Position numbers and translations under genes: made by a program | DNA from: Patescibacteria group bacterium | GTDB taxonomy: Bacteria > Patescibacteriota > Patescibacteriia > Patescibacteriales > UBA12465 | Assembly (NCBI GenBank): GCA_041651095.1 | Contig: JBAZJV010000003.1 | Span: 80,293 to 144,292, forward strand | Direction of reading: 5' to 3' | Length of the DNA stretch: 64,000 nt | In this document: positions 2,550 through 55,005 of the stretch, piece by piece | How positions within the stretch are numbered: position 1 is the first letter of the stretch | How the letters are laid out: each line of letters opens with the position of its first letter | The notes under the pieces: generated by a model | Databases searched by the model: none | What the model was told of the DNA's origin: nothing | What the model saw: the letters and a program-made list of their open reading frames with translations, nothing else

Positions 2550-5057
2550 TTATTTCAAATAGGGCTTTAAATATTTACCGGTAAAACTGGCGGGTTCCCG
2601 GGCGACGTCTTCGGGGGCGCCGGCCGCCACCAAGCGGCCGCCCGCTTCCCCGCCGTCCGGGCCGAGATCGATCAGATAATCCATCGCCTTGAGCATATGC
2701 ATATTGTGCTCGATGACCAAAACGGAATTGCCTTTTTCTACCAGTCTATTAAGCACGCCGAGCAATAGGTCGATGTCGTAATAATGCAGGCCGGTGGTCG
2801 GTTCGTCCAGCAGATAGAGCGTCCGTTTGCCCAAGGTATGGGTAAGCTCCTTGGCGATCTTGATGCGCTGGGCTTCACCGCCGGAGAGGGTCGTAGCGCT
2901 CTGGCCGATCTTGAGATAGCCGAGGCCGACCGAAGCCAGGACTTTCAATTTGTCGGTTATCAGATAATTCCCTTCGAAATGTTCGATTGCTTCGTCAATG
3001 GTCAGATCCAGGATTTCCGCGATATTTTTCCCCTTGTATTTTACTTGCAGGGTTTCCCGGTTGAACCGTTTGCCGCGGCAGACTTCGCACTCGACCAGCA
3101 CCGGCGGCAGAAAATGCATCTCAATCAGATTGGCGCCGGCGCCCTCGCAGGCTTCGCAGCGGCCGCCGGCACGATTGAAGGAAAAGCGGCCGATATTATA
3201 GCCTCTTTCCCGCGATTCAGGCAGGGCGGCAAAAAAATCGCGGATCGGCGTGAAGATGCCGGTGTAAGTCGCCGGATTGGAACGCGGCGTCCGGCCGATA
3301 GGCGACTGATCGATTACGACGATTCGGTTGATATATTCCAAGCCCTTGACCTCCTTGACTTCTTCTAATTTGTTCTTGCCCGGGTGATTCTTCAGATAGC
3401 TCACATTCTTATAGATTACATCATAGAGCAACGACGATTTGCCGCTGCCGGAGACGCCGCTGATGCCGACCAGGCGGCCTAGGGGGATATCGATATTTAG
3501 GTTTTTCAAGTTATTGGCGTGCGCGCCGCGCAGCCGCAAGGTCCCGTGGTTCTGTTCCCGGCGTTTGCTCGGCAAGGCGATGTCCTTCAGGCCGCTGAGG
3601 TATTGCAGGGTCAGGGATTTTTTCATCAGCGCCTTGTTCTTCTTGTCGCTCAGCAGATCCTTGGTTTCACCGCTGGCCACCACTTCCCCGCCGTGCACGC
3701 CGGCCAGCGGCCCGAGGTCGACCAGATAATCGGAAGATAAGATGGTCCGTTCGTCATGCTCGACGATAATGACCGTATTATTCTTGTCCCGCAATTTCTG
3801 CAAGGTCTCGATCAGGCGTTCGGTGTCCCGCTCATGCAAACCGATGGTCGGTTCGTCGAGCACGTACAGCGTGCGTGACAGATGCGAGCCGATCTGCGAG
3901 GATAAGCGTATCCGTTGGGCTTCACCGCCGGAAAGAGTTTCCGCCTCCCGGTCCAGAGAGATATAATGCAGGCCGACTTTCAGCAGGAATTCCAGACGGC
4001 TGATCACCTGGACGACCACGTTTTCCGCGATCGCCAGCTGACGTTTGGTCATCTTTTCATAATAATGATTGAAGAAGTCCAGGGACCGGTTGATCGGCAA
4101 AGCGCTGACTTCGGCGATATTCTTATTGTTTATCCGCACGGCCAAGGCTTCCGGCCGCAAGCGCCGTCCCCGACAGACCGGGCATTTTTCGTCGGAAAAG
4201 AAATCAGTCCGTCCCAGGCCGGTGCATTCCGGACAGGCGCCATGCGGTGAATTGAAGGAAAACAGCCGCGGCTCCACTTCCGGGAATGAGAAATTATCAT
4301 TCGGGCAGGTCCAATTGGCCGAGAGCAGGAATTCCCGGTCCTGATATTTGGCGATGACTAATCCCTTGCTGTAGTCCAGGGAATTCTCAATCGCTTCGAA
4401 CAGCCGGGTCTGGTCGCTCAGCAGTATCTTATCGATGACGATATCGATATCATGCTTCTGTTTCGGAGCCAGCTTGACGGTTTCGCGCAACGAGTGGACC
4501 TTGCCGTCGATGCGCGATTCGCTGTAGCCGAGGCCTAGGTAATTATAGAGCAGTTGGTAATATTCGCCTTTGCGATCGCGGACGACCGGCGACAAAATCG
4601 TGACATATTCCTCTCCCTGTTCCTGGCCGCGATTGATGACGATATCAACCATCTCTTCCACGGTCAGCTTTTCGATCTTGGTGCCGCAGACCGGGCAATA
4701 GACCTCGCCGATCCGGGCGTAAAGGACGCGCAGATAATCATAGATTTCGGTCAAGGTGCCGACCGTGGAACGCGGATTATGCGACAGGGCTTTCTGGTCA
4801 ATAGAAATGGACGGCGCCAAACCGACGATTTCATCGACATCGGCCGGTTTCTTCTGACCCAGGAATTGGCGCATATAGGGCGAGAGCGACTCCACGTATT
4901 GCCGCTGCCCTTCGGCGAAGATCGTATCGAAAGCCAACGACGATTTGCCGCTGCCGGAGACGCCGGTGATGACCGTCAATTTATTATGCGGTATTTCCAG
5001 GTCGATATTCTTTAAGTTATGCATCCGCGCGCCGCGAATGATCAGTTTTTCAGACAT
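2550..5057 (-). CDS. uvrA: excinuclease ABC subunit A (835 aa, insertion domain absent)
   Basis: GVSGSGKSSLAFDTIFAEGQRQYVESLS; two ABC modules (LSGGEAQR x2, Walker A GVSGSGKSSL x2); zinc modules CPVCG and ACPECTGLG...CPVCRG. Confidence 0.95.
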   Translation of the reverse strand: MSEKLIIRGARMHNLKNIDLEIPHNKLTVITGVSGSGKSSLAFDTIFAEGQRQYVESLSPYMRQFLGQKKPADVDEIVGLAPSISIDQKALSHNPRSTVGTLTEIYDYLRVLYARIGEVYCPVCGTKIEKLTVEEMVDIVINRGQEQGEEYVTILSPVVRDRKGEYYQLLYNYLGLGYSESRIDGKVHSLRETVKLAPKQKHDIDIVIDKILLSDQTRLFEAIENSLDYSKGLVIAKYQDREFLLSANWTCPNDNFSFPEVEPRLFSFNSPHGACPECTGLGRTDFFSDEKCPVCRGRRLRPEALAVRINNKNIAEVSALPINRSLDFFNHYYEKMTKRQLAIAENVVVQVISRLEFLLKVGLHYISLDREAETLSGGEAQRIRLSSQIGSHLSRTLYVLDEPTIGLHERDTERLIETLQKLRDKNNTVIIVEHDERTILSSDYLVDLGPLAGVHGGEVVASGETKDLLSDKKNKALMKKSLTLQYLSGLKDIALPSKRREQNHGTLRLRGAHANNLKNLNIDIPLGRLVGISGVSGSGKSSLLYDVIYKNVSYLKNHPGKNKLEEVKEVKGLEYINRIVVIDQSPIGRTPRSNPATYTGIFTPIRDFFAALPESRERGYNIGRFSFNRAGGRCEACEGAGANLIEMHFLPPVLVECEVCRGKRFNRETLQVKYKGKNIAEILDLTIDEAIEHFEGNYLITDKLKVLASVGLGYLKIGQSATTLSGGEAQRIKIAKELTHTLGKRTLYLLDEPTTGLHYYDIDLLLGVLNRLVEKGNSVLVIEHNMHMLKAMDYLIDLGPDGGEAGGRLVAAGAPEDVAREPASFTGKYLKPYLK

Positions 5058-36749: not shown

Positions 36750-37313
36750 TTATTTCATCGTCAATAATTTCATAAGAATAGCGTGCCTGACCCTGATTTC
36801 TTTTTTGGCGAACGGAAAAAATATCTTTTTGTTATAATCTCGATCCAATTTTTCCAAAGCCCAAGCTTTGAACTTGGCCAGGCTGTCCCAGCCGGTAACG
36901 GCGATTTGCAAATAAAAATCATTCACGTAGTGGGTCATGGCGTCGGCGGTCGCTAAAATCTTCCCTTCCAATGTTCGGGGCATCAAGCGGTCGCAACTGT
37001 GAGACAGGATAATATCCTGCACTTTCTTGATCTTATCGGGCGGGTAGCCGTATTCTTTCATTATTTTTTTCGCCTCGCTCGCTCCTATTTTTTGATGATC
37101 GCCCTTTATTCCTCTGACCCTTTGGATATCATGCAACCAAACGCCCAATAAGACCAGTTCCCGATCAGCTTTAGGTAGTCTGCTCAGCAGGAAATTGGCG
37201 TATTTTTCCACCGCCAAGAGATGGCGGTCATAAAACCAGGGGTTGATACGGCCCAGATTATAACATTCGTTTTTAACCTTGTTCTTGATTTGCTTGATGG
37301 TTTTAAGAGTCAT
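36750..37313 (-). CDS. HD-domain phosphohydrolase
   Basis: LGVWLHDIQR (the H...HD...D pattern). Confidence 0.65.
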   Translation of the reverse strand: MTLKTIKQIKNKVKNECYNLGRINPWFYDRHLLAVEKYANFLLSRLPKADRELVLLGVWLHDIQRVRGIKGDHQKIGASEAKKIMKEYGYPPDKIKKVQDIILSHSCDRLMPRTLEGKILATADAMTHYVNDFYLQIAVTGWDSLAKFKAWALEKLDRDYNKKIFFPFAKKEIRVRHAILMKLLTMK

Positions 37314-38088
37314 AGATTTTTGCTTGAGGATTTATGATCTGCAATAATTTCCGGTGCAGCGGCTTATTGGCCGCCAGCATCTCCCGATCCTTTAAAGACC
37401 AGGTCTTACCTTGGAAATTAGTAACTTTGCAGCCCGCTTCGGAAAGAATCAATGAGGGAGCGGCATAATCCCATAGTCCCCCGCCACGAGAGACTCGCCA
37501 GTCTCTCCGGCCATCGGCCTGATACATGGCGCTGACACCGGCCGACCCCAAAGCGCTTATCCAAAATTTTTCTCTTTTCGCGTGTTTTAATAATTGATAC
37601 AAATTTGCCACGTTTTTCTGAGTCAGATTGGAGCCGACTATCCCCCAACTGTTTTCCCAGATTTTTTGTCGCGAGCAGGCAATTTTTTTGCCGTTCAAGA
37701 AAGCCCCTTGGCCTTTCTTGGCAAAAAACAACTCATCGGTGCAAGGATTATATATCGCGGCCAGTTCCATCTTCTCCCGGCAGGCTAAGCCGACCATTAC
37801 CGCGAACAGCGGCGTTCTATGCAGGAAATTGCGAGTGCCGTCCAGCGGATCTATGATCCAGCAATATTCCGCACCAACCTGATACAAGCCCGTTTCTTCG
37901 GATATTATCGCGTGAGACGGGTATTTCCGTTTAATCGCTTTTATAATAATATTATTGGCCGCTAAATCCGCCTCAGTAACGATATCAGCCGCGTCTTTTT
38001 TTGTATACTTAAGCCCGACTTTTCCGAATTTCTTCAGAACGGCGGCTCCCGCCGCCCGGGTTATCTGTTTAATAAACCTCTCTGTCAT
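37303..38088 (-). CDS. inositol monophosphatase/SuhB/CysQ-family phosphatase
   Basis: ISEETG, WIIDPLDGTRNF, GSAGVS...WDYAA. I prefer the start at MTERF (38088), because the 13 upstream ORF codons lie in an intergenic repeat. Confidence 0.8.
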   Translation of the reverse strand: MTERFIKQITRAAGAAVLKKFGKVGLKYTKKDAADIVTEADLAANNIIIKAIKRKYPSHAIISEETGLYQVGAEYCWIIDPLDGTRNFLHRTPLFAVMVGLACREKMELAAIYNPCTDELFFAKKGQGAFLNGKKIACSRQKIWENSWGIVGSNLTQKNVANLYQLLKHAKREKFWISALGSAGVSAMYQADGRRDWRVSRGGGLWDYAAPSLILSEAGCKVTNFQGKTWSLKDREMLAANKPLHRKLLQIINPQAKIYDS

Positions 38089-38096
38089 ATATGAAT

Positions 38097-38140
38097 AAAA
38101 TACCACGAAAATCCGGGCACTGTCCATTAACCCGCGACCG
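38097..38140 (-). repeat. weak copy of the island repeat (TTAATGGACAG module plus hairpin)
   Basis: The minus strand reads GCGGGTTAATGGACAGTGCCCGGATTTTCGTGGTATTTT and shares G(A/G)GTTAATGGACAG with the copy at 39671-39716. Confidence 0.35.
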
Positions 38141-38190
38141 CGAAGGCGCGCCAGCGGCGCCTGCTTTAAGCATATTTTTATTTTTATTAA

Positions 38191-38529
38191 TTAACACGCT
38201 TGCTCAAATTTAACGATTTTCTTGATAACCGCCCCTTGAAACAATCTGAAGGCCGGGCGCTTCTCTTTTTCATAAATCATCGGGACGCCCAAGAGCCGCC
38301 CGCATTTCCGGCAAACCAACGGCGGCAACGATTTAAAAGATTTGCCGGCCAAATCGCTGTAATCTTTTGATTTATATATCCTGTCCAGATACATTCTTTT
38401 CAATATTCCGGGACCGTCCTTTTGATAAAATCCCACAATCTGGCCGCAACCTTCGCAGCTGATTTCCAATAACCGCGAATATCCGCCCCGGTTTTTCTTG
38501 TATTTATCATTTTTCAATTTATTTTTCAT
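38191..38529 (-). CDS. hypothetical protein with two CxxC pairs (zinc ribbon-like)
   Basis: CEGCG...CRKCG; basic N-terminus; no recognisable family. Confidence 0.5.
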   Translation of the reverse strand: MKNKLKNDKYKKNRGGYSRLLEISCEGCGQIVGFYQKDGPGILKRMYLDRIYKSKDYSDLAGKSFKSLPPLVCRKCGRLLGVPMIYEKEKRPAFRLFQGAVIKKIVKFEQAC

Positions 38530-38574
38530 AATCTAATAGTAGCATATCGCTTAGAAGCTTTAAACCCGCCGCTA

Positions 38575-38638
38575 AAAATAGCCCGGAAATAGGGCTATTT
38601 AAACAGCGCAAAGCTTGGAATACAATTGGAACGAACGG
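38575..38638 (-). repeat. island repeat copy (decayed tRNA-Gln T-loop/acceptor-like motif plus hairpin) after the HNH gene
   Basis: The minus strand reads CCGTTCGTTCCAATTGTATTCCAAGCTTTG...AAATAGCCCTATTTCCGGGCTATTTTT. Confidence 0.45.
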
Positions 38639-38676
38639 TTTATTATATCAAATCGACCGAAGCCACCCCCTTGACT

Positions 38677-39087
38677 TTAGAAGATAATTTTATGCTTTTT
38701 AAAAGAGTTGCACCTTTTACATGCTATTCTTAGATTTGAAATATCGTTAGAGCCGAAACTTTGGCTAGCAACTTTTTTCCCAAATTCAGGCTTTAATTTT
38801 CTTAAAAGCTTATTAAGTTTATTAGTTGAAAGCGGTATAAAATGATCAACGTCAAATTTCTTTATTTCGCCGCAATCTGGACATAAATTTAATTGGCATT
38901 TTTCCCCATGTTTTGAAATTAATTCTTTATAAATTTTATTCCTGATTAAATTAAATTCTTTTCTTTTGGTCTGCGGATTTCTAAAATCAAACATTCTTGA
39001 AAATTTTTTTTCAAATAAAATCTTATCGCCGTTCGCTAATTTTTTGAGAAAATAATTGTAATCCGTTTTATATCGGAAATTGTCCAT
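38677..39087 (-). CDS. HNH endonuclease
   Basis: CPDCG...DVDHFIPLS...N...CKRCNSFKKHK (HNH with a Zn-binding Cys pair). Confidence 0.7.
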   Translation of the reverse strand: MDNFRYKTDYNYFLKKLANGDKILFEKKFSRMFDFRNPQTKRKEFNLIRNKIYKELISKHGEKCQLNLCPDCGEIKKFDVDHFIPLSTNKLNKLLRKLKPEFGKKVASQSFGSNDISNLRIACKRCNSFKKHKIIF

Positions 39088-39150
39088 GACACTAATATTT
39101 TATAACTTTACCAAAAAAGATGACAACCAATAGCCAGAATTATACGAGTT

Positions 39151-39179
39151 TATCGGAGTCCGAGACATAGTTGGAACTG
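39151..39179 (-). repeat. island repeat copy after the NUDIX gene at 39199-39645
   Basis: The minus strand reads CAGTTCCAACTATGTCTCGGACTCCGATA (20/26 identical to the copy at 43434-43461). Confidence 0.45.
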
Positions 39180-39198
39180 TTATAAACATAGCGAACCG

Positions 39199-39645
39199 CT
39201 AATCATTCCAACCAAGTTCACTAAAAAATATATTATCATTAATTTTATTCAAGGCCTGTTTTACTTCAGGAGCAATATTATCAGGGAGAGCATCTAATTT
39301 AAACCATTTCAATTCACTGCATTTATCAGGCTCCATATTTGTGATTTCCCCGGTCCACTTCTTTACTTTTAAGTAAACATCGAAATATTCACGGTCTGGT
39401 CTAAATCTGTGAAGCACATGAACCACCTCTGAATCCTTAGGGGAAATTACTATATTTGCTTCTTCCAATGCTTCCCTTGATATGCATTGTCCAGCCGTTT
39501 CACCGCCATCAAAATGTCCTGATACTAAGCTATAGTTCCCATCCTGATATCCAGTATTATAACGTTTTGAAAGTAAAACTTTATCGTCTTCCATTAAAAC
39601 TAAATAAGCAGCTGCGTAGGGCCTGAATCTGTCTTCTTTAGACAT
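39199..39645 (-). CDS. NUDIX hydrolase
   Basis: Nudix box GHFDGGETAGQCISREALEEANI. Confidence 0.8.
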   Translation of the reverse strand: MSKEDRFRPYAAAYLVLMEDDKVLLSKRYNTGYQDGNYSLVSGHFDGGETAGQCISREALEEANIVISPKDSEVVHVLHRFRPDREYFDVYLKVKKWTGEITNMEPDKCSELKWFKLDALPDNIAPEVKQALNKINDNIFFSELGWND

Positions 39646-39670
39646 ATTATTAATAATTATTTATATAACA

Positions 39671-39716
39671 AAAATACCACGACAAGTGGTATTCTGTCCA
39701 TTAACTCGGGATTTGT
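39671..39716 (-). repeat. island repeat copy (acceptor-like CCCGAG + TTAATGGACAGAATACCAC hairpin) after the nitroreductase gene
   Basis: The minus strand reads AAATCCCGAGTTAATGGACAGAATACCACTTGTCGTGGTATTTTT. The hairpin plus T-run also serves as a terminator. Confidence 0.5.
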
Positions 39717-39724
39717 TAAAAAAT

Positions 39725-40249
39725 TTAAATAATAATTTCCTCCAATTTCTTCCTTTCTCTCGGTCTTGATTCGCCACCCGGAAAACCAAAAGGGATCATA
39801 ATTAATGGCCGCAAATTATTATGTAGCGCCAGGGCTTTTTTAACTTCATCCTCATTAAAAGATCCGATCCAAACCGAAGCCAATCCCTTGGAAGCTATGA
39901 CAAGCTGCAAATAAGCCGCCAATATAGTTGCATCTTGAAGTGCATAAAGAAGTTTCCCTCTCTCTTTAAATACTGTTTCCGATTCCGCCGGGTCGGCGCA
40001 AATAACAAAAATTACCGGCGCGCTCATGATTGATTCTTGTTTGGTAAAATTTCTAGTAAAAGTCGCTTCTTTCAGCAACTCTCTTTTATCTTTAGTCCTG
40101 ACAATTTTAACCTTATAGGCTTGAAGATTGCCGGCCGAAGGAGCCAGTTGAGCCAAACTTAAAATCTCCCGCACTATTTCTTCAGAAATTTCAGTTGGCT
40201 GGAACTTTCTGATTGATTTTCTGCTTTCTAAAACATTATTGAAGTCCAT
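39725..40249 (-). CDS. nitroreductase-family protein
   Basis: RKSIRKF, PSAGNLQ, and a C-terminal FGFP pattern. Confidence 0.8.
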   Translation of the reverse strand: MDFNNVLESRKSIRKFQPTEISEEIVREILSLAQLAPSAGNLQAYKVKIVRTKDKRELLKEATFTRNFTKQESIMSAPVIFVICADPAESETVFKERGKLLYALQDATILAAYLQLVIASKGLASVWIGSFNEDEVKKALALHNNLRPLIMIPFGFPGGESRPRERKKLEEIII

Positions 40250-40269
40250 AAAGTGAAACCTTTTACTAT

Positions 40270-40662
40270 CTAAAAACCAAAATGCTTAAGAGTCGGCTTG
40301 ATATTAGGAGCTATAGCTTCTTTATCTAGATCATTTATATCTATCCAGCGCCATTCTCTAATGTCTTCCCCTGGTGTTATTTCGCCGATTCTTCTGGCTA
40401 AAAAATGAACCAATACGACGCTGACTTTCATCCCATCTTTTTCTTTTTCAGTATAAAATAAATATGGCTCATTATCCGTTATTTCTACATCTAACCCCAT
40501 TTCTTCCTTGACTTCCCTTTTGGCTGTTTCTTTTAAATCAATATCGCTTTCCTCAATCCGACCGCCACAGAACTTCCAAAAATTGTCTTTCCCATCTTTG
40601 TTTAATAAAACTTTATTATTTTCCACTATAACCGGCCCCGAAGCAATTATTATTTTAAGCAT
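40270..40662 (-). CDS. NUDIX hydrolase
   Basis: Nudix box GGRIEESDIDLKETAKREVKEEMGL. Confidence 0.8.
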   Translation of the reverse strand: MLKIIIASGPVIVENNKVLLNKDGKDNFWKFCGGRIEESDIDLKETAKREVKEEMGLDVEITDNEPYLFYTEKEKDGMKVSVVLVHFLARRIGEITPGEDIREWRWIDINDLDKEAIAPNIKPTLKHFGF

Positions 40663-40773
40663 AATATTGATCTATTTTAATATTAACACCGTCCATTCCA
40701 AACTTCAATATAAAAAGACCCGAGCCGGATATACCCGGATCAGGTCTTTCTTTGAATCTAAATTCGGATCAGA

Positions 40774-41250
40774 CTATTTGACTGGCACGCATAAGTCAGT
40801 CAGGAATACGCCGCCATCCTTTTTCGGGTCATTGCGGTAAATTTCCAAACAAGGCTTATTATCCGGTTCATAACCGCTTTGCGGCAGCCATTCCCGATAC
40901 AATTCATCCCAGGCCTGTTCAAAACCGGCCGTGTCTTTGACTTTTACCCTGGCGACAGCATACTTGCCGGCCGGCAGGGTTTCCAGGTTCAAACCACTGC
41001 CCGAAATCTCGGTCCCAGCCGGCACGCTCAGGCAGATATCAACGCGGAGTTTGTCCTCGTCAGTAATCTTCGGGTCATCATAATAAGCGCTGAGAAACAT
41101 GGCCTCGGGCGTCAATAAGCCTCTTGGCCCGGCCCAGCCGCATAAGCGTCCGAAAGCTTGGTCGAAAAGAGCGCTGTTATTCTTAAAATTACCGATATGA
41201 CGGACATAGGCCACTGTCAAGGCGGGCATTTCTTGGATCTTAACTTCCAT
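40774..41250 (-). CDS. GyrI-like small-molecule-binding domain protein
   Basis: MPALTVAYVRHIGNF...E.cLSVP..., a typical GyrI-like/AraC effector-binding fold pattern. Confidence 0.7.
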   Translation of the reverse strand: MEVKIQEMPALTVAYVRHIGNFKNNSALFDQAFGRLCGWAGPRGLLTPEAMFLSAYYDDPKITDEDKLRVDICLSVPAGTEISGSGLNLETLPAGKYAVARVKVKDTAGFEQAWDELYREWLPQSGYEPDNKPCLEIYRNDPKKDGGVFLTDLCVPVK

Positions 41251-41430
41251 ATTGCTTGGCTTAAAATTATTAATAATGATTCGACCTTTATTTTTATTTA
41301 TTAAATACTATTTTCGGTTTTGTTTCGGTTATGATATTAATATAACAAACTTTTAAAAATATGGCTAGCTCCGGCGTCTCGGCCATTTATGAACACATCA
41401 CTGACCTAAGGGAAATAACATCCTGGCAAC

Positions 41431-41491
41431 AAAAATACTGGCATAATGCCAGTATTTTTATTTAGCTCGAGGTTTGGGATATAATCGAAAC
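41431..41491 (-). repeat. best-preserved island repeat: copy of the tRNA-Gln 3' end plus its terminator hairpin
   Basis: The minus strand reads GTTTCGATTATATCCCAAACCTCGAGCTAAATAAAAATACTGGCATTATGCCAGTATTTTT. Compare the tRNA-Gln flank GGTTCGAATCCCTGTCCCCGAGCTAAATAAAAAATACTGCTATATAGCAGTATTTTTT. Confidence 0.7.
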
Positions 41492-41508
41492 TTTTATAAT
41501 TCCTTGTA

Positions 41509-41904
41509 CTAGGCTGATTGTTTTTTATATTGGGACAGACCAAGGATATTGCCCTCGGAATCCTTAAACCAGGCCAAGAAACCCATGGCGCCATTTTCTC
41601 CCAGAGGGGTTTTCCCTCTCACAATCGCTCCTCCCTGAGCGACAATTTTTTCAAGCGTGGCGTCGATATCCTCCACGTCAACGTAGAACATCGGATAAGG
41701 CATCTGCGGATCGCGTTTGCTGGATCCGCCATTTATAAATCCCGGCGCGGTTGGCTGCATCTTTTCGTCAACCGGACCGGTTTGCCAACTAGTATAACCA
41801 AATTTTTCCCATTCAAACGGTTGCCAGCCAAAAACATTTTGATAAAAAGATTTGGCCCTGTCTTTATTATCCCACGGAAACTCAAAATGTGTAACTTTAT
41901 TCAT
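41509..41904 (-). CDS. VOC-family (glyoxalase/bleomycin-resistance fold) protein
   Basis: VTHFEFPWDNKDRAKSFYQNVFGW... and the C-terminal WFKDSEGNILGL. Confidence 0.75.
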   Translation of the reverse strand: MNKVTHFEFPWDNKDRAKSFYQNVFGWQPFEWEKFGYTSWQTGPVDEKMQPTAPGFINGGSSKRDPQMPYPMFYVDVEDIDATLEKIVAQGGAIVRGKTPLGENGAMGFLAWFKDSEGNILGLSQYKKQSA

Positions 41905-41971
41905 AAATTTAAATTTATGTTTTAAATATGTGACCAGAATAGCACAAGAAGTAATATTTTGTAAACCTAGA

Positions 41972-41996
41972 TCGCCTGGAGGGAATATTTTCGGAC
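41972..41996 (-). repeat. degenerate island repeat copy after the ArsM-like gene
   Basis: The minus strand reads GTCCGAAAATATTCCCTCCAGGCGAT (GGGA-TAT..TCG.AC core on the + strand). Confidence 0.35.
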
Positions 41997-42027
41997 TTTT
42001 TATGAAAGCCTCTTAATAAATTAGCGT

Positions 42028-42759
42028 CTATTTTGTCAATTCAACCATTATACTTTCTAAGGGCATGCCACCATATTGCTGCTTGCTAATATCGGGGTTC
42101 TCATAAAGAATCCTGACTTGGAAACCGGCATTCTTGATTTTATTTAAATATTCATCTCTTAACAGAGCGCCGGCGACGCAACCGGAAATCAACTCATCAT
42201 TGTTTCTCTGCTCTGCTGAGAGTTTTCCCAACAAGACGATATCTGAAAGATAGATTTTGCCACCCACTTTTAACACTCTATATGCTTCGCTGAATGTCTT
42301 AGCTTTATCTGGGGTGAGATTAACCACACAGTTTGTGATTATCATATCTACCGAACTATCTGGCAAAGGAATATTTTCTATTTCTCCCAATAAAAACTCA
42401 ACATTTTGGACACCTTGTTTCTTAGCGTTTTCTTTAGCTTTTTCGACCATTTCTTCCGTCATATCGACACCGATTACCTTTCCTGTGTCGCCCACTCTTT
42501 TCGCCGCTAAAATGGCATCTATACCGGCACCGGAGCCTAGATCAAGAACAATATCACCTGCTTTTATTTTGCTAAAAGCCAAAGGATTGCCACACCCTAG
42601 GCCCATATTCGCTGCGCCAACGGTTTTTAAATCTTCAGCTGTATAACCTATGCTTTTTGATATACTATTTGCGCTATTACAACCACAGCCACACCCCGAA
42701 TTGCTCGCCGCTATTTTTCCATAAGCATTTTTAACTATCTTTTTAATATCCTTTTCCAT
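42028..42759 (-). CDS. arsM: arsenite methyltransferase-like SAM-dependent methyltransferase
   Basis: N-terminal GCGCGC cysteine cluster, SAM motif VLDLGSGAGID, and downstream ISGCVAGA, as in the ArsM/UbiE-type enzymes I recall. Confidence 0.7.
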   Translation of the reverse strand: MEKDIKKIVKNAYGKIAASNSGCGCGCNSANSISKSIGYTAEDLKTVGAANMGLGCGNPLAFSKIKAGDIVLDLGSGAGIDAILAAKRVGDTGKVIGVDMTEEMVEKAKENAKKQGVQNVEFLLGEIENIPLPDSSVDMIITNCVVNLTPDKAKTFSEAYRVLKVGGKIYLSDIVLLGKLSAEQRNNDELISGCVAGALLRDEYLNKIKNAGFQVRILYENPDISKQQYGGMPLESIMVELTK

Positions 42760-42815
42760 ATAATCTTAAGAATTTAATTAATAACAGATTAAATTTAATT
42801 ATTCCCTTTTATTAA

Positions 42816-42854
42816 TGGTATTTTGTCCATTAGCTCGATGTTTAGGATATCATC
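42816..42854 (-). repeat. island repeat copy after the toxin gene
   Basis: The minus strand reads GATGATATCCTAAACATCGAGCTAATGGACAAAATACCA (22/26 identical to the copy at 41464-41491). Confidence 0.55.
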
Positions 42855-42865
42855 AAAACGGTTAC

Positions 42866-43111
42866 TTAGTAACTATTGTAGGTTTTATCAGATCTTCTCT
42901 CAATAGTTAAAATGAAATATCGGCCAGCGCCTTGTTTTTTAAAAATTATTCTCAATTTCCCTTTTCTGATACGAAAAATGTCATCGCAATTTTTCAACTT
43001 TTTCAAATCAAATCCCAACAAAGAACCACTTTTTATTTTTAGTAAGACGCTCTTAATCATTCCCCTTTCCTGCGGTGATAAACTTTGCAATGCTTTAGCG
43101 ATCTTGTCCAT
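42866..43111 (-). CDS. type II toxin, RelE/ParE-like
   Basis: 81 aa with KKLKNCDDIFRIRKGKLRIIFKK...ILTIERRSDKTY, the pattern typical of RelE/ParE toxins. 4 nt downstream of the antitoxin gene. Confidence 0.6.
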   Translation of the reverse strand: MDKIAKALQSLSPQERGMIKSVLLKIKSGSLLGFDLKKLKNCDDIFRIRKGKLRIIFKKQGAGRYFILTIERRSDKTYNSY

Positions 43112-43115
43112 AAGA

Positions 43116-43331
43116 TTACAAGACGGCTAAAAGTTCATCGATATTAACACCACCTTTTTTGATTTTAGCAAAATTGATAACTTCCTCCCATCTATCATCT
43201 TCATTTATCGGAGTCAATTTAAAAAGAGGTTTGCTTTGTTTTAAAACGATGAAAGATTTGCCGGCTTTTACTTCAGTGGCATATTTATCCATATTAAGCC
43301 GCAAATCTTTTAACGCTATTAGATTTTCCAT
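43116..43331 (-). CDS. type II antitoxin, Phd/YefM-like
   Basis: 71 aa; N-terminal LKDLRLNMDKYATEVKAGKSFIVLKQSKPLFKLTP resembles the Phd/YefM fold. Confidence 0.6.
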   Translation of the reverse strand: MENLIALKDLRLNMDKYATEVKAGKSFIVLKQSKPLFKLTPINEDDRWEEVINFAKIKKGGVNIDELLAVL

Positions 43332-43363
43332 ATATTTTGAATTAAATAAATAAGGTTAACTAT

Positions 43364-43392
43364 AGTTTAACAAAAGATTACCCTTGTGTCAA
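43364..43392 (-). promoter_or_regulatory. near-consensus promoter for the TA pair
   Basis: The minus strand reads TTGACA-N17-TAAACT, about 30 nt upstream of the antitoxin ATG. Confidence 0.55.
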
Positions 43393-43398
43393 GAAAAT

Positions 43399-43461
43399 AA
43401 AAATAGGCTTTTAAAACCTATTTTCGCGCTTTACTCGGAGTTTGGGATATACTTGGAACAA
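43399..43461 (-). repeat. island repeat copy (T-loop/acceptor-like motif plus hairpin) after ORF 43522-43785
   Basis: The minus strand reads TTGTTCCAAGTATATCCCAAACTCCGAGTAAAGCGCGAAAATAGGTTTTAAAAGCCTATTTT. Confidence 0.6.
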
Positions 43462-43521
43462 TTTTACACAAAAATAAAAGAGGCGCATACTAAGCAACCT
43501 CTTTTGATAAAATCAAACATT

Positions 43522-43785
43522 TTACAGATCCTTCTCATGGGCAATTCTTCGCCTGTTTACTAAATCTGCTGAGTATTTTCTGAACTTTTTTTCATCCATG
43601 CCAATAATAGCTTGACTGTCCATATCAAGCGAACCGTGGAATTCATCCTTCCTTATCCAGAGGCGATACCATTGGAGTTTAATGCCCCGATGCCAGACAG
43701 ATCTTATAGTTTTTTCTATTCTTAATTTAGTCTCGGATGAAAAATTAAGGCAGAAAAAATATAATTTAATAAATAGCTTATTCAT
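43522..43785 (-). CDS. hypothetical small basic protein (87 aa)
   Basis: Strong SD (AAGGAG, 5 nt before the ATG). W/R/K-rich with no recognisable family. Followed by hairpin 43477-43506. Confidence 0.45.
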   Translation of the reverse strand: MNKLFIKLYFFCLNFSSETKLRIEKTIRSVWHRGIKLQWYRLWIRKDEFHGSLDMDSQAIIGMDEKKFRKYSADLVNRRRIAHEKDL

Positions 43786-43938
43786 TATTACTCCTTTTGT
43801 AAAAAAATATTTTTGAAATATTTATTTAAAAGAACCGTGGTTCCGACAACATATACTTAATATACTTAGGATACTATAAATTCCTTAAAAATACAATTTA
43901 CAATACTCAAACACTTATCGGCTCATTTTTCTTCAATG

Positions 43939-44094
43939 CTCGGGGACAGGGATTTCCGCCTCAGGCGCTCACCAGTTCGCGCCTTCGTTGTCGCGGGTTG
44001 CGTTAAGCATCCCCCGGATGCTTAACGATCGCTCACTGCGTCGTCGGCCTGCTGGCCGCCGACTAGTTCGCTGCAACCCTGTTCGAATCCCCAA
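43939..44094 (-). other. 156-nt GC-rich multi-hairpin element with tRNA-Gln-like termini (candidate ncRNA or folded recombination site)
   Basis: The ends pair as UUGGGGA...UCCCCGA, like the tRNA-Gln acceptor. The 3'-terminal 17 nt are identical to the tRNA-Gln 3' end. Internal hairpins: 44001-44027 (12 bp), 44040-44063 (10 bp, one mismatch), 43964-43983 (5 bp). The strand is assigned only by analogy to the tRNA. Confidence 0.35.
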
Positions 44095-44110
44095 CTCACA
44101 AGATGAAATA

Positions 44111-44140
44111 AAAAATACTGCTATATAGCAGTATTTTTTA
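44111..44140. terminator. bidirectional intrinsic terminator between tRNA-Gln and the structured element
   Basis: AATACTGCTA-TA-TAGCAGTATT perfect stem flanked by an A-run and a T-run. Confidence 0.7.
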
Positions 44141-44145
44141 TTTAG

Positions 44146-44216
44146 CTCGGGGACAGGGATTCGAACCCCGATAAACAGGACCAGAACCTGTTGTCCTACC
44201 GTTAGACGATCCCCGA
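44146..44216 (-). tRNA. tRNA-Gln (anticodon CUG)
   Basis: Hand-folded cloverleaf: acceptor UCGGGGA/UCCCCGA (U1-A72); D arm GUCU-AACGGUA-GGAC; anticodon arm ACAGG-UUCUGGU-CCUGU; T arm CGGGG-UUCGAAU-CCCUG; discriminator G. CCA is not encoded. Confidence 0.9.
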
Positions 44217-44273: not shown

Positions 44274-45758
44274 CTAATCCCTTCTTGGCCTCATCAGCGG
44301 GAAAATTTGGCACTCTCGCGCGGTCTTATCCATCAAGAAACTGAACAGCCGTTCGCTGAAGCCAAAGCCGCAGGTTGGCGGCATGCCGTGTTCCAGAGCT
44401 TCTACGAAATCGCGATCGTGCGGCTGAGCCTCTTCGTCGCCGGCCTCTTTCAGGCGCTGCTGCTCCTGGAAACGCTCTTCCTGATCCACGGGGTTATTCA
44501 ATTCACTGTACCCATTGCCATTTTCCGAACCGGCCAAGATGACCTGAAAGCGCTGGGCCAAATCCGGATTCTGCTCATCCCGCTTGGCTAAAGGCGAAAT
44601 AGTAATCGGCGTGCCGACCAGGAAGCCTGGACCGGCGATCTGCTTGCGGCAATACTTCCAAAGATTATCCATCGCCCGAGTAATATTGAAGCCTTTTTGG
44701 TCGTAATCAATTTTCAACTCCTTGAGCTTTTTGACCATCTCGGCTTCACTGGCCGTCAAGACATCCAAGCCGGTCAGCTTTTTTACCGTTTCCCGATAAT
44801 CATACTTTTCCCATTTCTGGCCGAGGTCGATATCAAAACCTTTGATCTTGAATTTCAAGGTGCCGAAAGTTTCCTGAGCGATATGTTTATACATTTCTTC
44901 CACCAGTGCCATACCCATTTCATAGTCGGCATAACCCCAATAAAATTCCATCTGGGTGTAGTCCTGCAGGTGCTCGGCGTCCATGCCCTCATTCCTAAAC
45001 TGGCGGCCGATCTCGAAAGTCTTGTCCAAGCCGGCGACCATCAGTTTCTTCTGCCACAGCTCGCCCATGGAAATGCGCAAGAAAACTTCGATATCCAAAG
45101 CGTTGTGATGAGTCTTGAACGGCTTGGCGTCGGCGCCGCCGGCCATGGTTTCCAGTACCGGCGTTTCTACTTCGATGAAGCCGCGCTGCAACAGGAAATC
45201 GCGCGTCGCCTGCCAGAACTTGGCCCGTTTCATCACCATTTCCTTGGTCTCCGCATTCAAGAGAATATCCAGATAACGTTTCCGGAACAGTTCGTCTTCA
45301 TCTTTCAGGCCGTACCAGGCGTCGGGAATCGGCCGGATCGCCTTGGATAGTAATTTCCACTCTTTGACCATCACGCTCTTTTCGCCTTTATGGGTCAGGA
45401 AGCAAACGCCCTTGGCTTGAAGAAAATCGGCCGTATCGATAAATTTTAGGAAATCCTTGTAGGCGTCTCCTCCCAGATCTTTTTTGGAAAAAGCCAGCTG
45501 GATGCGGCCCGAGGCGTCCTCCAGATCGGCGAAGGCCAGATTGCCGTGTTCCCGCTTGGAGCGCAGTCGGCCGGCCAAAACGACCGTTTCCTGCCGTTCA
45601 ACTAAACGGTCAAAATCTTTCAAAACAACGCTTACCGATCGGTCGCGTTCGGTCTTGGCCGGATACGGATTGACGCCAGCCTTAAACAAAGCCGTCAGCT
45701 TGTTCAGGCGGTCCTGCCGTTCGCTGGCCGAGGATTTTTCCAGATTAGTCTCGGACAT
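44274..45758 (-). CDS. lysS: lysine--tRNA ligase (class II)
   Basis: OB anticodon-binding N-domain. Class II motifs FRNEG, ...ELNNP..Q..RF, GFGFSERL. Confidence 0.93.
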   Translation of the reverse strand: MSETNLEKSSASERQDRLNKLTALFKAGVNPYPAKTERDRSVSVVLKDFDRLVERQETVVLAGRLRSKREHGNLAFADLEDASGRIQLAFSKKDLGGDAYKDFLKFIDTADFLQAKGVCFLTHKGEKSVMVKEWKLLSKAIRPIPDAWYGLKDEDELFRKRYLDILLNAETKEMVMKRAKFWQATRDFLLQRGFIEVETPVLETMAGGADAKPFKTHHNALDIEVFLRISMGELWQKKLMVAGLDKTFEIGRQFRNEGMDAEHLQDYTQMEFYWGYADYEMGMALVEEMYKHIAQETFGTLKFKIKGFDIDLGQKWEKYDYRETVKKLTGLDVLTASEAEMVKKLKELKIDYDQKGFNITRAMDNLWKYCRKQIAGPGFLVGTPITISPLAKRDEQNPDLAQRFQVILAGSENGNGYSELNNPVDQEERFQEQQRLKEAGDEEAQPHDRDFVEALEHGMPPTCGFGFSERLFSFLMDKTARECQIFPLMRPRRD

Positions 45759-54810: not shown

Positions 54811-55005
54811 GGCACGACCTTTATTTTATGAATGATGGGTTTTTAAACGAACGAATAGTTGATTTATCATACTACAATATAACACAAAATCTGTCAATAC
54901 AAAACCAGCCTAAGCTGGTTAGTTGTTCCGGATCATGGATTTGCACCACGATGCACGGCTCCAAAGGCCGCTGTCTTGCTAGCTTAAACGAATCCGGAAT
55001 ATACC

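Follow-up and report, generated by a model that had tools for sequence, protein, structure and literature searches.

What is the GC-rich block that separates a tRNA-Gln gene from an array of small AT-rich genes in a patescibacterial genome, and why does it end in the same letters as that tRNA? The block lies in a stretch of 64,000 nt of contig JBAZJV010000003.1 (assembly GCA_041651095.1; "the window" hereafter means this whole stretch), where the initial annotation had described it as a multi-hairpin element that could be a tRNA-mimicking noncoding RNA, a folded recombination site analogous to the attC sites of integrons, or a tRNA-Gln paralogue with a replaced core. Patescibacteria have tiny genomes in which gene gain and loss are little known, and the locus appears to be a tRNA-Gln-anchored cassette array driven by serine-recombinase and rolling-circle elements. 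The block belongs to a previously undescribed family of GC-rich, strand-specific, structured noncoding elements of Patescibacteria, about 150 to 170 nt long, to which we give the label E, and its tRNA-like 3' end is probably a copy of the attachment (att) site used by serine-recombinase elements and cassettes. Recombinase-driven islands anchored at tRNA genes are known; the conserved structured module that duplicates the attachment site is new.

On the minus strand, lysS (44274-45758) is followed by tRNA-Gln(CUG), its terminator palindrome, the GC-rich block, and then a stretch of low-GC open reading frames (ORFs), so that the block stands between the terminator of the tRNA and AT-rich DNA (Table 1). 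The LysRS encoded by lysS is 100% identical to a protein listed at NCBI for a Patescibacteria group bacterium, and its relatives are Falkowbacteria-like. The 17-mer GCTCGGGGACAGGGATT is present exactly at 43938-43954 and at 44145-44161, with no third site in the window at up to three mismatches. The location of the element and its 17-nt identity with tRNA-Gln, as first proposed, therefore hold, whereas the start of the proposed interval (43939-44094) needs correction, because the repeat puts the true start at 43938. Direct reading of the letters also bore out the three hairpins described earlier (a perfect 12-bp stem at 44001-44027, 10 bp with one mismatch at 44040-44063, and 5 bp at 43964-43983), and the complementarity of GGGTTG (43995-44000) with CAACCC (44074-44079) is present in the window. 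The element is unusually stable when folded as RNA, with z scores of -4.05 for the minus strand and -4.22 for the plus strand and none of 200 shuffles as stable, and the z scores for DNA folding of the element were -4.4 and -3.6.

Table 1. Coordinates of the element, its helices, and neighboring features in the window
Feature	Position	Strand	Remarks
Structured element E	43938-44098	-	Covariance-model match 158.2 bits, E 3e-47; 63% GC
3' tail AAUCCCUGUCCCCGAGC	43938-43954	-	Exact copy of the tRNA-Gln 3' end; putative tRNA-type (B-type) attachment arm, with the crossover placed at or near terminal GAGC
ATTGAAGAAAAAT, first bases past the tail	43925-43937	-	Also starts SR401-type elements or units elsewhere; start of the first inserted cassette
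P1 5' strand GGGAUUCG	44091 down to 44084	-	Pairs with 43949-43958; G44092 can add a G·U pair
P1 pairing	44084-44091 / 43949-43958	-	GGAUUCG / CGG[AA]AUCC; two bulged A at 43953-43954
P2, 5' strand GGGUUGC	44073-44079 with 43995-44001	-	Double-sided changes in 6 of 7 pairs; 82% of cells paired
P3, long irregular hairpin	44031-44071	-	Contains the earlier-noted hairpin 44040-44063; basal pairs covary (GC:38 AU:1; CG:33 UA:6)
P4, 11- to 12-bp hairpin with GGG loop	44002-44026	-	Double changes in 9 of 11 pairs; 86% of cells paired
P5, short hairpin	43963-43984	-	Double changes in 5 of 6 pairs
tRNA-Gln(CUG) gene	44145-44216	-	ARAGORN; Rfam tRNA 57.4 bits; last 17 nt (44145-44161) are the putative attachment-site arm
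tRNA intrinsic terminator	44106-44143	.	Perfect 19+19-nt AT-rich palindrome (100% complementary) plus T run; first part of the ORF-less unit of ~210 bp
Low-GC array of small cassettes	38130-43937	-	34-42% GC against ~52% elsewhere
Degenerate arms	~43433-43459, 42831-42861, 41465-41491, 39702-39717, 39148-39177, 38605-38638	-	Cassette junctions
Toxin-antitoxin (TA) cassette	42866-43331		Shared with L003
NUDIX130 cassette	40270-40662		Shared with L003

Relatives of the element were first sought in lysS loci, mostly from species-representative genomes; the related contigs that were fetched are labeled L001 and so on. The succession of tRNA-Gln, terminator, a GC-rich block of ~160 nt with the tRNA-Gln-type 3' 17-mer, and usually another terminator was seen in L001, L003, and L076, and homologues of E lie 3' of tRNA-Gln in these three loci and in L081. 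A metagenome scan for a pattern made up of nothing but the tail AATCCNNNTCCCCGAGC and the conserved 5' motif GGATTCGAACA gave 29 DNA stretches; including the window and the earlier loci, this gave 36 distinct pattern-matching sequences, among which that of L099 is probably spurious. A covariance model built from 35 pattern-matching sequences then yielded 39 full-length copies of E, some of them missed by the pattern, plus truncated ones. The window copy is one of at least 39 on patescibacterial contigs. Pairwise identities within the family range from 0.40 to 0.98 (median, 0.59), and the nearest relative of the window copy is 85% identical. Over the 39 copies, the mean GC content is 60%, against 33% in the following 500 nt; a terminator-like hairpin precedes 38 copies and follows 29. 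Arrays in the other loci contain one to three copies, placed at the head of the array or within it, the orientation of which is always that of the tRNA. The family is real but narrow, since strong matches were found in only 5 loci when the window and 83 lysS loci (80 of them from species-representative genomes) were searched together, and two pattern scans of IMG/VR viral contigs found no E on phage or plasmid contigs.

Known RNA classes do not account for the element. With the window copy as the query, nothing in Rfam reached the gathering threshold, and the sole match at E ≤ 10, PrrB_RsmZ, is at chance level (10.3 bits against a gathering threshold of 44, E 8.3); four further copies gave no Rfam match at E ≤ 1, and ARAGORN reported no tRNA or transfer-messenger RNA (tmRNA) in the element. 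These checks agree with the initial judgment that the block fits neither tRNA, tmRNA, nor another known RNA class, and the homologues, together with the covariation described below, bear out that it is a genuine conserved structured noncoding element. In the patescibacterial literature, searches for cassettes, serine recombinases, or structured RNA turned up no description of E.

Five helices (P1 to P5) are supported by RNAalifold and by explicit pair counting. In a plain MAFFT alignment, 77.8% of the cells pair, against 34 to 40% in controls with slid 3' partners; covariation scores 0.415, compared with 0.07 to 0.12 in these controls, and double-change cells number 267 against 40 to 99. The model-based alignment gave similar figures for pairing and covariation. 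By this comparative evidence, P2 to P5 are supported by covariation, and P1 is largely invariant: most of its pairs do not change, one pair varies between U·G and U-A, and 8 to 9 compensatory cells are seen at the outer pair. The 5' strand of P1 repeats the T-loop region of the tRNA in inverted orientation. The GGGTTG/CAACCC complementarity, which the initial annotation took for an alternative helix, is instead part of the conserved helix P2. For P4, several distinct stem sequences recur across the copies, and the register of the inner part of P3 varies between subtypes; compensatory change is also observed within a single hairpin type (for instance, GACGATATG...CATATCG versus GACAATATG...CATATTG). 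Between the helices run conserved purine-rich linkers (GAAGCGAG, GACAACGAAG, and CUGAGGCGGAAAUCC), which are replaced by GGACAAGUGAG and GCGAGCGCGAUAAUCC in a second subfamily of E. G·U pairs outnumber A·C pairs by 110 to 35, and G·U is preferred at several positions; because of this excess, the folding strand is taken to be the tRNA-sense strand, that is, the minus strand of the window.

The persistence of this fold bears directly on the view that E is functionless, being either a recombination scar or a decayed tandem copy of tRNA-Gln filled with GC-rich palindromes. Decayed copies do exist, such as an inverted fragment at 38129-38166 and the short copies called mini-E below, and palindromes resembling repetitive extragenic palindromic (REP) sequences invade related units in L103 and L076. 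However, the five-helix architecture and its linkers persist in copies that are only 40 to 60% identical, and the hundreds of compensatory cells, some of them within single hairpin types, contradict such a reading, for which we see scarcely any room.

Comparison of the homologues also decides on the proposal that the termini imitate a tRNA. According to this proposal, E would be a noncoding RNA whose ends form an acceptor/T-stem minihelix, a 7-bp acceptor-like helix stacked on a 5-bp CAGGG/CCCUG helix, that is handled by RNase P, RNase Z, the CCA-adding enzyme, or a synthetase. UUGGGGA and UCCCCGA, as well as CAGGG and CCCUG, are indeed able to pair in the window copy, where the pairing of the 5' GGGG with the 3' CCCC is used in the centroid structure of the RNA folding. 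Some GGGGA run could pair with the tail in nearly all of the copies when the alignment was read by eye, and tRNA-Gln genes match the E model weakly from end to end, at ~21 bits. Across 35 homologues, however, none of the 12 pairs of the stack shows compensatory change, the covariation score of the minihelix (0.043) is lower than the shuffle mean, and the four outer acceptor pairs form in 26 to 57% of the copies. In the shorter helix, CAGG is invariant while its partner varies (CCCTG, CCCTA, CCTTG, CCTGG, CCATG, and CCAGG), and G20-G21 lie in the covarying P2. The resemblance of the 5' end to the tRNA, which had been noted in the window, is not kept across the family, whose 5' flank is variable. 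ARAGORN and the Rfam tRNA model are negative, the acceptor-like pairing of the window is part of an 88-nt imperfect palindrome (44081-44166) centered on the terminator, and the 17-mer identity with the tRNA is accounted for by an att arm. The minihelix is thus largely refuted, and tRNA mimicry as a whole has become a very remote prospect; a tRNA-Gln paralogue with a replaced core is possible as the origin of E. A general caution follows, namely, that a structured element whose end is identical to a tRNA 3' end can signal an att site rather than RNA mimicry.

The related loci point to the tail as such a site. SR401, a 401-aa serine recombinase with Resolvase and Zn-ribbon domains, is encoded directly after the tRNA in L008, a locus without E in which tRNA-Gln is immediately followed by ATTGAAGAAAAATCGC..., and directly after the E tail in L086. 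The two recombinases are 85 to 88% identical, and the same element has therefore inserted at the tRNA in one genome and after the tail of E in another. In both cases, the ORF of SR401 runs across the junction, into the tRNA antisense (L008) or into E antisense (L086). Likewise, ATTGAAGAAAAAT is found past the E tail in the window, L086, L096, L106, and L109 and directly past the tRNA in L008; in L008 and L086, when the sequences were read by eye, it is the antisense of the last element-encoded recombinase codons (...SDFSS). In these two loci, where the origin of the codons can be traced, the last ~20 to 25 recombinase codons come from sequence across the att crossover. Longer serine recombinases, of 512 to 563 aa, have ORFs that likewise run antisense into a neighboring arm, which is the 3' end of a tRNA-Gln gene (L006 and L113) or of a tRNA-Ser gene (L119) or, in L102, a degenerate arm. 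The Pfam domains Resolvase, Recombinase, Zn_ribbon, and REP_ORF2-G2P are present in the associated elements, and a rolling-circle replication protein (Rep) of the REP_ORF2-G2P family is encoded beside the serine recombinase in L088, L091, and L008. This Rep family is widespread in Patescibacteria, with about 200 relatives in the protein collection. A conserved module consisting of a 310-aa unknown protein, a Rep (PF23343), and, contig permitting, a large serine recombinase was also observed in other Patescibacteria, beside the 3' ends of tRNA-Gln UUG (L113) and tRNA-Ser GCU (L116, L117, and L119).

The position of the crossover can be narrowed by comparing two loci in which near-identical terminator-plus-E units follow the tRNA (L101) or a degenerate arm (L106). 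Their flanks diverge to the left of the GAGC/ATAAAA boundary and to the right of the end of CCCCGAGC, and therefore the crossover would lie at or near the terminal GAGC. It follows from this position that AAUCCnnnUCCCC is part of E itself, and because it belongs to E, the E tail is sometimes unlike the adjacent tRNA arm (L101, L102, and L087). The crossing over at or near GAGC is inferred to be the work of serine recombinases that belong to integrative elements; a rolling-circle Rep is also encoded by some of these elements. Outside the tRNAs, the exact tRNA-type arms that were seen are nearly confined to E tails, the one exception being a different GC-rich unit with the same tail in L076; thus, the junction past E would constitute a second, perfect attB-like site. 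As expected of an attB-type site, a short repeat is present at both junctions (the exact 17-mer in the window), and it would contain the crossover by the comparison of L101 with L106. A serine recombinase gene lies beside the site in related loci (L008, L086, L006, L102, and L113); tblastn finds no such gene in the window. Taken on sequence comparison, the evidence shows the last 17 nt of E as a tRNA-type attachment arm and not an acceptor mimic, and a role of the tail as an att site, or landing pad, is well supported.

These observations suggest how the unit may work. The terminator, E, and the tail would form an ORF-less module of ~210 bp that supplies tRNA-Gln with a terminator and restores a perfect target downstream. 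An insertion at the tRNA would push E inward, which would explain why interior copies of E are found behind a degenerate arm and a terminator, whereas an insertion past E, the configuration of the window, would leave the tRNA and its terminator untouched. The unit has the features of a nonautonomous miniature integrative cassette, by a logic like that of miniature inverted-repeat transposable elements: it contains no ORF, it is flanked by target repeats, its 39 copies occur in varied contexts, and its GAGC ends and following arms are shared with the serine-recombinase elements. Tandem copies of unlike subtypes are found in L089 and L096, which, together with a UUG-type tail at the CUG locus of L101, argue for exchange between loci.

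Several points weigh against this picture of E as a structured att-site module that insertions use and displace. The sample is biased, the loci having been obtained by searching for E. The hairpin types recur and are shuffled among copies, and the cell counts therefore overstate the number of independent events. P1 is largely invariant in part because the search pattern fixed its sequence. The array of the window has neither a recombinase nor a Rep gene by tblastn, and recombination at its E tail is deduced from other loci. Finally, the patterns also fit a host-side duplicated attB module that is displaced by insertions, as an alternative to an E that moves on its own. We nevertheless regard the description of E as an undescribed structured family with an att-site copy at its 3' end as probable.

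The body of E, as distinct from its tail, probably works as a single strand that is folded, since compensatory changes would be meaningless in duplex DNA; this single-strand action is the least certain part of the explanation. We see about an even chance that the body is RNA produced by read-through from tRNA or cassette promoters; folded single-stranded DNA is possible but clearly less likely, and other explanations take a still smaller share. The preferred G·U positions, the branched architecture with conserved linkers, and the downstream terminator all point to RNA. Two observations run counter to it: a sigma-70-like promoter within 100 nt upstream is found in 0 of 39 copies, compared with 13 of 21 tRNA-Gln genes under the same criteria, and an intrinsic terminator stands directly before E copies. 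Any RNA of E would therefore arise by read-through. As an RNA, E would represent a new RNA class connected with site-specific recombination; in the role of folded DNA, it would make an uncommon partner of serine-recombinase elements.

Simpler forms of the RNA or structural view were also considered. An independent small-RNA gene is rejected for want of a sigma-70-like promoter upstream of any of the 39 copies. A riboswitch-like leader, in which an aptamer would be combined with a terminator, is at odds with the lack of a promoter, with the unrelated downstream genes, and with the fact that E can precede another E. A free single-stranded 3' tail was not made part of the main explanation, as the mean unpaired probability of the tail in the partition function is only ~0.53, and its C run can pair with various G runs without a conserved partner. 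The idea that the tail serves as a free antisense seed on the mRNAs of the recombinases, whose ORFs read antisense across att, would be attractive but is unsupported. A small hairpin 5' of E is not universal either; only some of the copies have one.

The folded-DNA alternative deserves closer attention. In its most specific form, E would be a single-stranded recombination site, like attC or the attP(+) site of CTX phage, in which P1 rebuilds a target-like duplex (CGAATCC/GGATTCG) for cassette capture. P1 is made from inverted and direct partial copies of the T-loop region and equals the duplex of the tRNA gene except for two bulged A residues and one G·U replacing an A-T pair. The folding is strand specific, and no promoter precedes any copy; an ORF-less unit needs cis functions only, and both ends have been retained by the truncated mini-E copies of L111 and L103. 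C-GNA-G triloops, which form very stable DNA mini-hairpins, often cap the small hairpins that lie 5' of E, and the Rep (HUH) proteins of the companion elements imply single-stranded intermediates. However, the recombinases that were found are of the serine type, which act on duplex sites, and neither a tyrosine recombinase nor IntI was seen beside the arrays. The crossover would be located at the terminal GAGC, outside P1, most array cassettes are without E, the G·U preference at several positions is more typical of RNA, and the Rep-bearing elements with a large serine recombinase that were examined (L113 to L122) have no E. We consider a site of this kind unlikely, but still worth keeping in view.

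The related loci also bear on the attC comparison in the form in which it was first drawn. The association with cassettes and recombination is upheld by the comparison of related loci, but the attC-like site itself is not. GTTAAGC/GCTTAAC is present in P4 of the window, but homologues carry unrelated stems such as GCTAAAGCTCC and GGACGATATGCC at this position. The recombinases found in related arrays belong to the Resolvase family; no IntI was seen, the whole window not having been screened for it. In the array of the window, E is found only at the first junction, and the other junctions consist of a degenerate arm and a terminator.

The Rep proteins raise another possibility, that E is a replication origin (a single-strand origin or a Rep nick site) of rolling-circle integrative elements. 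Single-strand origins of rolling-circle plasmids are multi-hairpin, orientation-specific, noncoding sequences of similar size, and E, at ~160 nt, shares these properties; moreover, REP_ORF2-G2P proteins are encoded beside the serine recombinase in L088, L091, and L008. E is, however, missing from all ten loci that contain a Rep and a large serine recombinase (L113 to L122), by which an origin of these elements is rejected, and in L091 a degenerate arm and a terminator separate E from the Rep element. The folding strand of E is also antisense to rep in L008, L088, and L091, and the displaced strand is usually rep-sense; E would in that case be on the wrong strand. An origin of this type is thus very improbable.

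E together with its perfect arm might also be the fixed, attI-like platform of an integron-like gene capture run by serine recombinases, with the body as an active cofactor. The body could then be an RNA scaffold whose att-core tail, being complementary to the 3' ends of the recombinase mRNAs, controls recombinase expression; a folded strand that marks the preferred insertion site is another possibility. As a whole, we think that an active platform is decidedly unlikely.

The probable arrangement, in which a structured unit carries an att-site copy, can be compared with several known systems. In the arrays of the staphylococcal cassette chromosome (SCC), the Ccr large serine recombinases act at the 3' end of rlmH, direct repeats of the site of integration separate the tandem cassettes, and cassettes without a recombinase are presumably moved in trans. 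The E arrays resemble staphylococcal and enterococcal SCC in that a serine recombinase integrates elements where a conserved gene ends and in the direct repeats between tandem cassettes; they differ in their tRNA target and in the terminator at each junction, and SCC is not known to have a structured, GC-rich, ORF-less unit that duplicates attB. With the attC sites of integrons, E shares its place at cassette boundaries, arrays of one orientation, structure that is more conserved than sequence, strand-specific folding, and inverted and direct repeats with extrahelical bases. Unlike attC, E is without the conserved R''/R' boxes (RYYYAAC/GTTRRRY) and is a five-helix branched structure with conserved linkers, its crossover would fall outside the closing helix, and most of the cassettes here have no E.

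A further parallel is the attP(+) site of CTX phage, in which a duplex like the target is formed by folding of two partial, inverted target copies, and the insertion of a unit without an integrase regenerates the target and produces tandem arrays. Similarly, E has two inverted partial copies of its target ~130 nt apart, a target-like fold, a restored target, and no integrase of its own. In contrast to CTX phage and other Xer-dependent elements, no dif-like site or link to Xer was seen here, and the associated enzymes are serine recombinases; the folded-DNA role of E is putative. E also looks like the tRNA-like RNAs (the tmRNA domain, YrlA, viral tRNA-like structures, and mascRNA) in its tRNA-identical 3' end and its T-loop-like UUCGAA, but it has no conserved acceptor or T arm, and the similarity would reflect the attachment site.

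Tycheposons integrate at tRNA 3' ends and show successive insertions, partial tRNA repeats, some large serine recombinases, and cargo-only units, as far as the part of the account consulted describes them (Hackl et al., bioRxiv 10.1101/2020.12.28.424599). The E arrays are similar, by the same part of the account, with respect to the site at the tRNA 3' end, the older insertions pushed inward, and the partial tRNA repeats; they are different in their patescibacterial hosts, in their mostly single-gene cassettes, and in that only serine recombinases were seen here, whereas that part of the account reports tyrosine integrases in 910 of 937 elements (Hackl et al., bioRxiv 10.1101/2020.12.28.424599). 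A conserved structured noncoding module with a perfect tRNA-type arm is not mentioned in the portion of the tycheposon account that was consulted (bioRxiv 10.1101/2020.12.28.424599).

The array behind E in the window encodes a Phd-type antitoxin and its partner, a methyltransferase, a glyoxalase, a GyrI-like/Cass2 protein, two NUDIX proteins, a nitroreductase, an HNH protein, and others. At each cassette junction there is a degenerate tRNA-3'-like arm that ends in GAGC or a variant and in most cases has a terminator hairpin behind it; in ungapped and gapped alignments, 74 to 80% identity to the real tRNA end plus terminator is reached by the copy at 41431-41480. Degenerate arms such as ...GTTCCAAnTATATCCCAAACTCCGAGC end gene cassettes as well as autonomous elements. 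Downstream of E in L003 (11920-12929), an array of another species, the TA cassette (92% and 80% protein identity) and the NUDIX130 cassette (74%) are found again in a different order; a promoter belonging to the TA cassette itself, TTGACA-17-TAAACT, lies at 43392-43364 on the minus strand of the window. The HNH136 cassette (38677-39087, minus strand) is homologous, as judged by eye from the N termini, to a 136-aa gene that in L091 is located beside the SR401 recombinase and the rolling-circle Rep. An autonomous element of this SR401/Rep type may therefore be the source of part of the array in the window.

A second tRNA-Gln gene of the window (anticodon UUG, 54925-54998, minus strand) is atypical, scoring 42.9 bits in Rfam where the CUG gene scores 57.4; a search of the window found no array, no E, and no downstream repeat of its own 3' end at this gene. 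At tRNA-Gln loci in other genomes, 5 of 10 representative lysS-tRNA-Gln contigs (L002, L005, L007, L013, and L025) end within ~50 nt past the tRNA, which suggests that assemblies break at the repeated or heterogeneous region after tRNA-Gln. The arrangement described here may account for the frequency of such breaks in these organisms.

Altered copies of E were observed at several places. Mini-E copies of ~55 to 85 nt, in L111 (~3290-3376) and L103 (3906-3990), retain the 5' motif GATTCGAA and the tail around a short interior, and each is situated between terminators. In L103 (2465-2660), the att core of one E copy is interrupted by the REP-like GC-rich palindrome CCTGCCTGCCGGCAGGCAGG, and the same palindrome fills the different GC-rich unit with the tRNA-Gln tail in L076 (4378-4507). 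At the array's distal edge in the window, an inverted partial E (38129-38166, plus strand; 91% over 22 nt) contains the 3' strand of P2, the GCGACnnCGAAG linker, and P5, and it abuts the start codon of an inositol-monophosphatase-like gene (37303-38127, minus strand); this fragment may be the relic of a rearrangement between two E copies.

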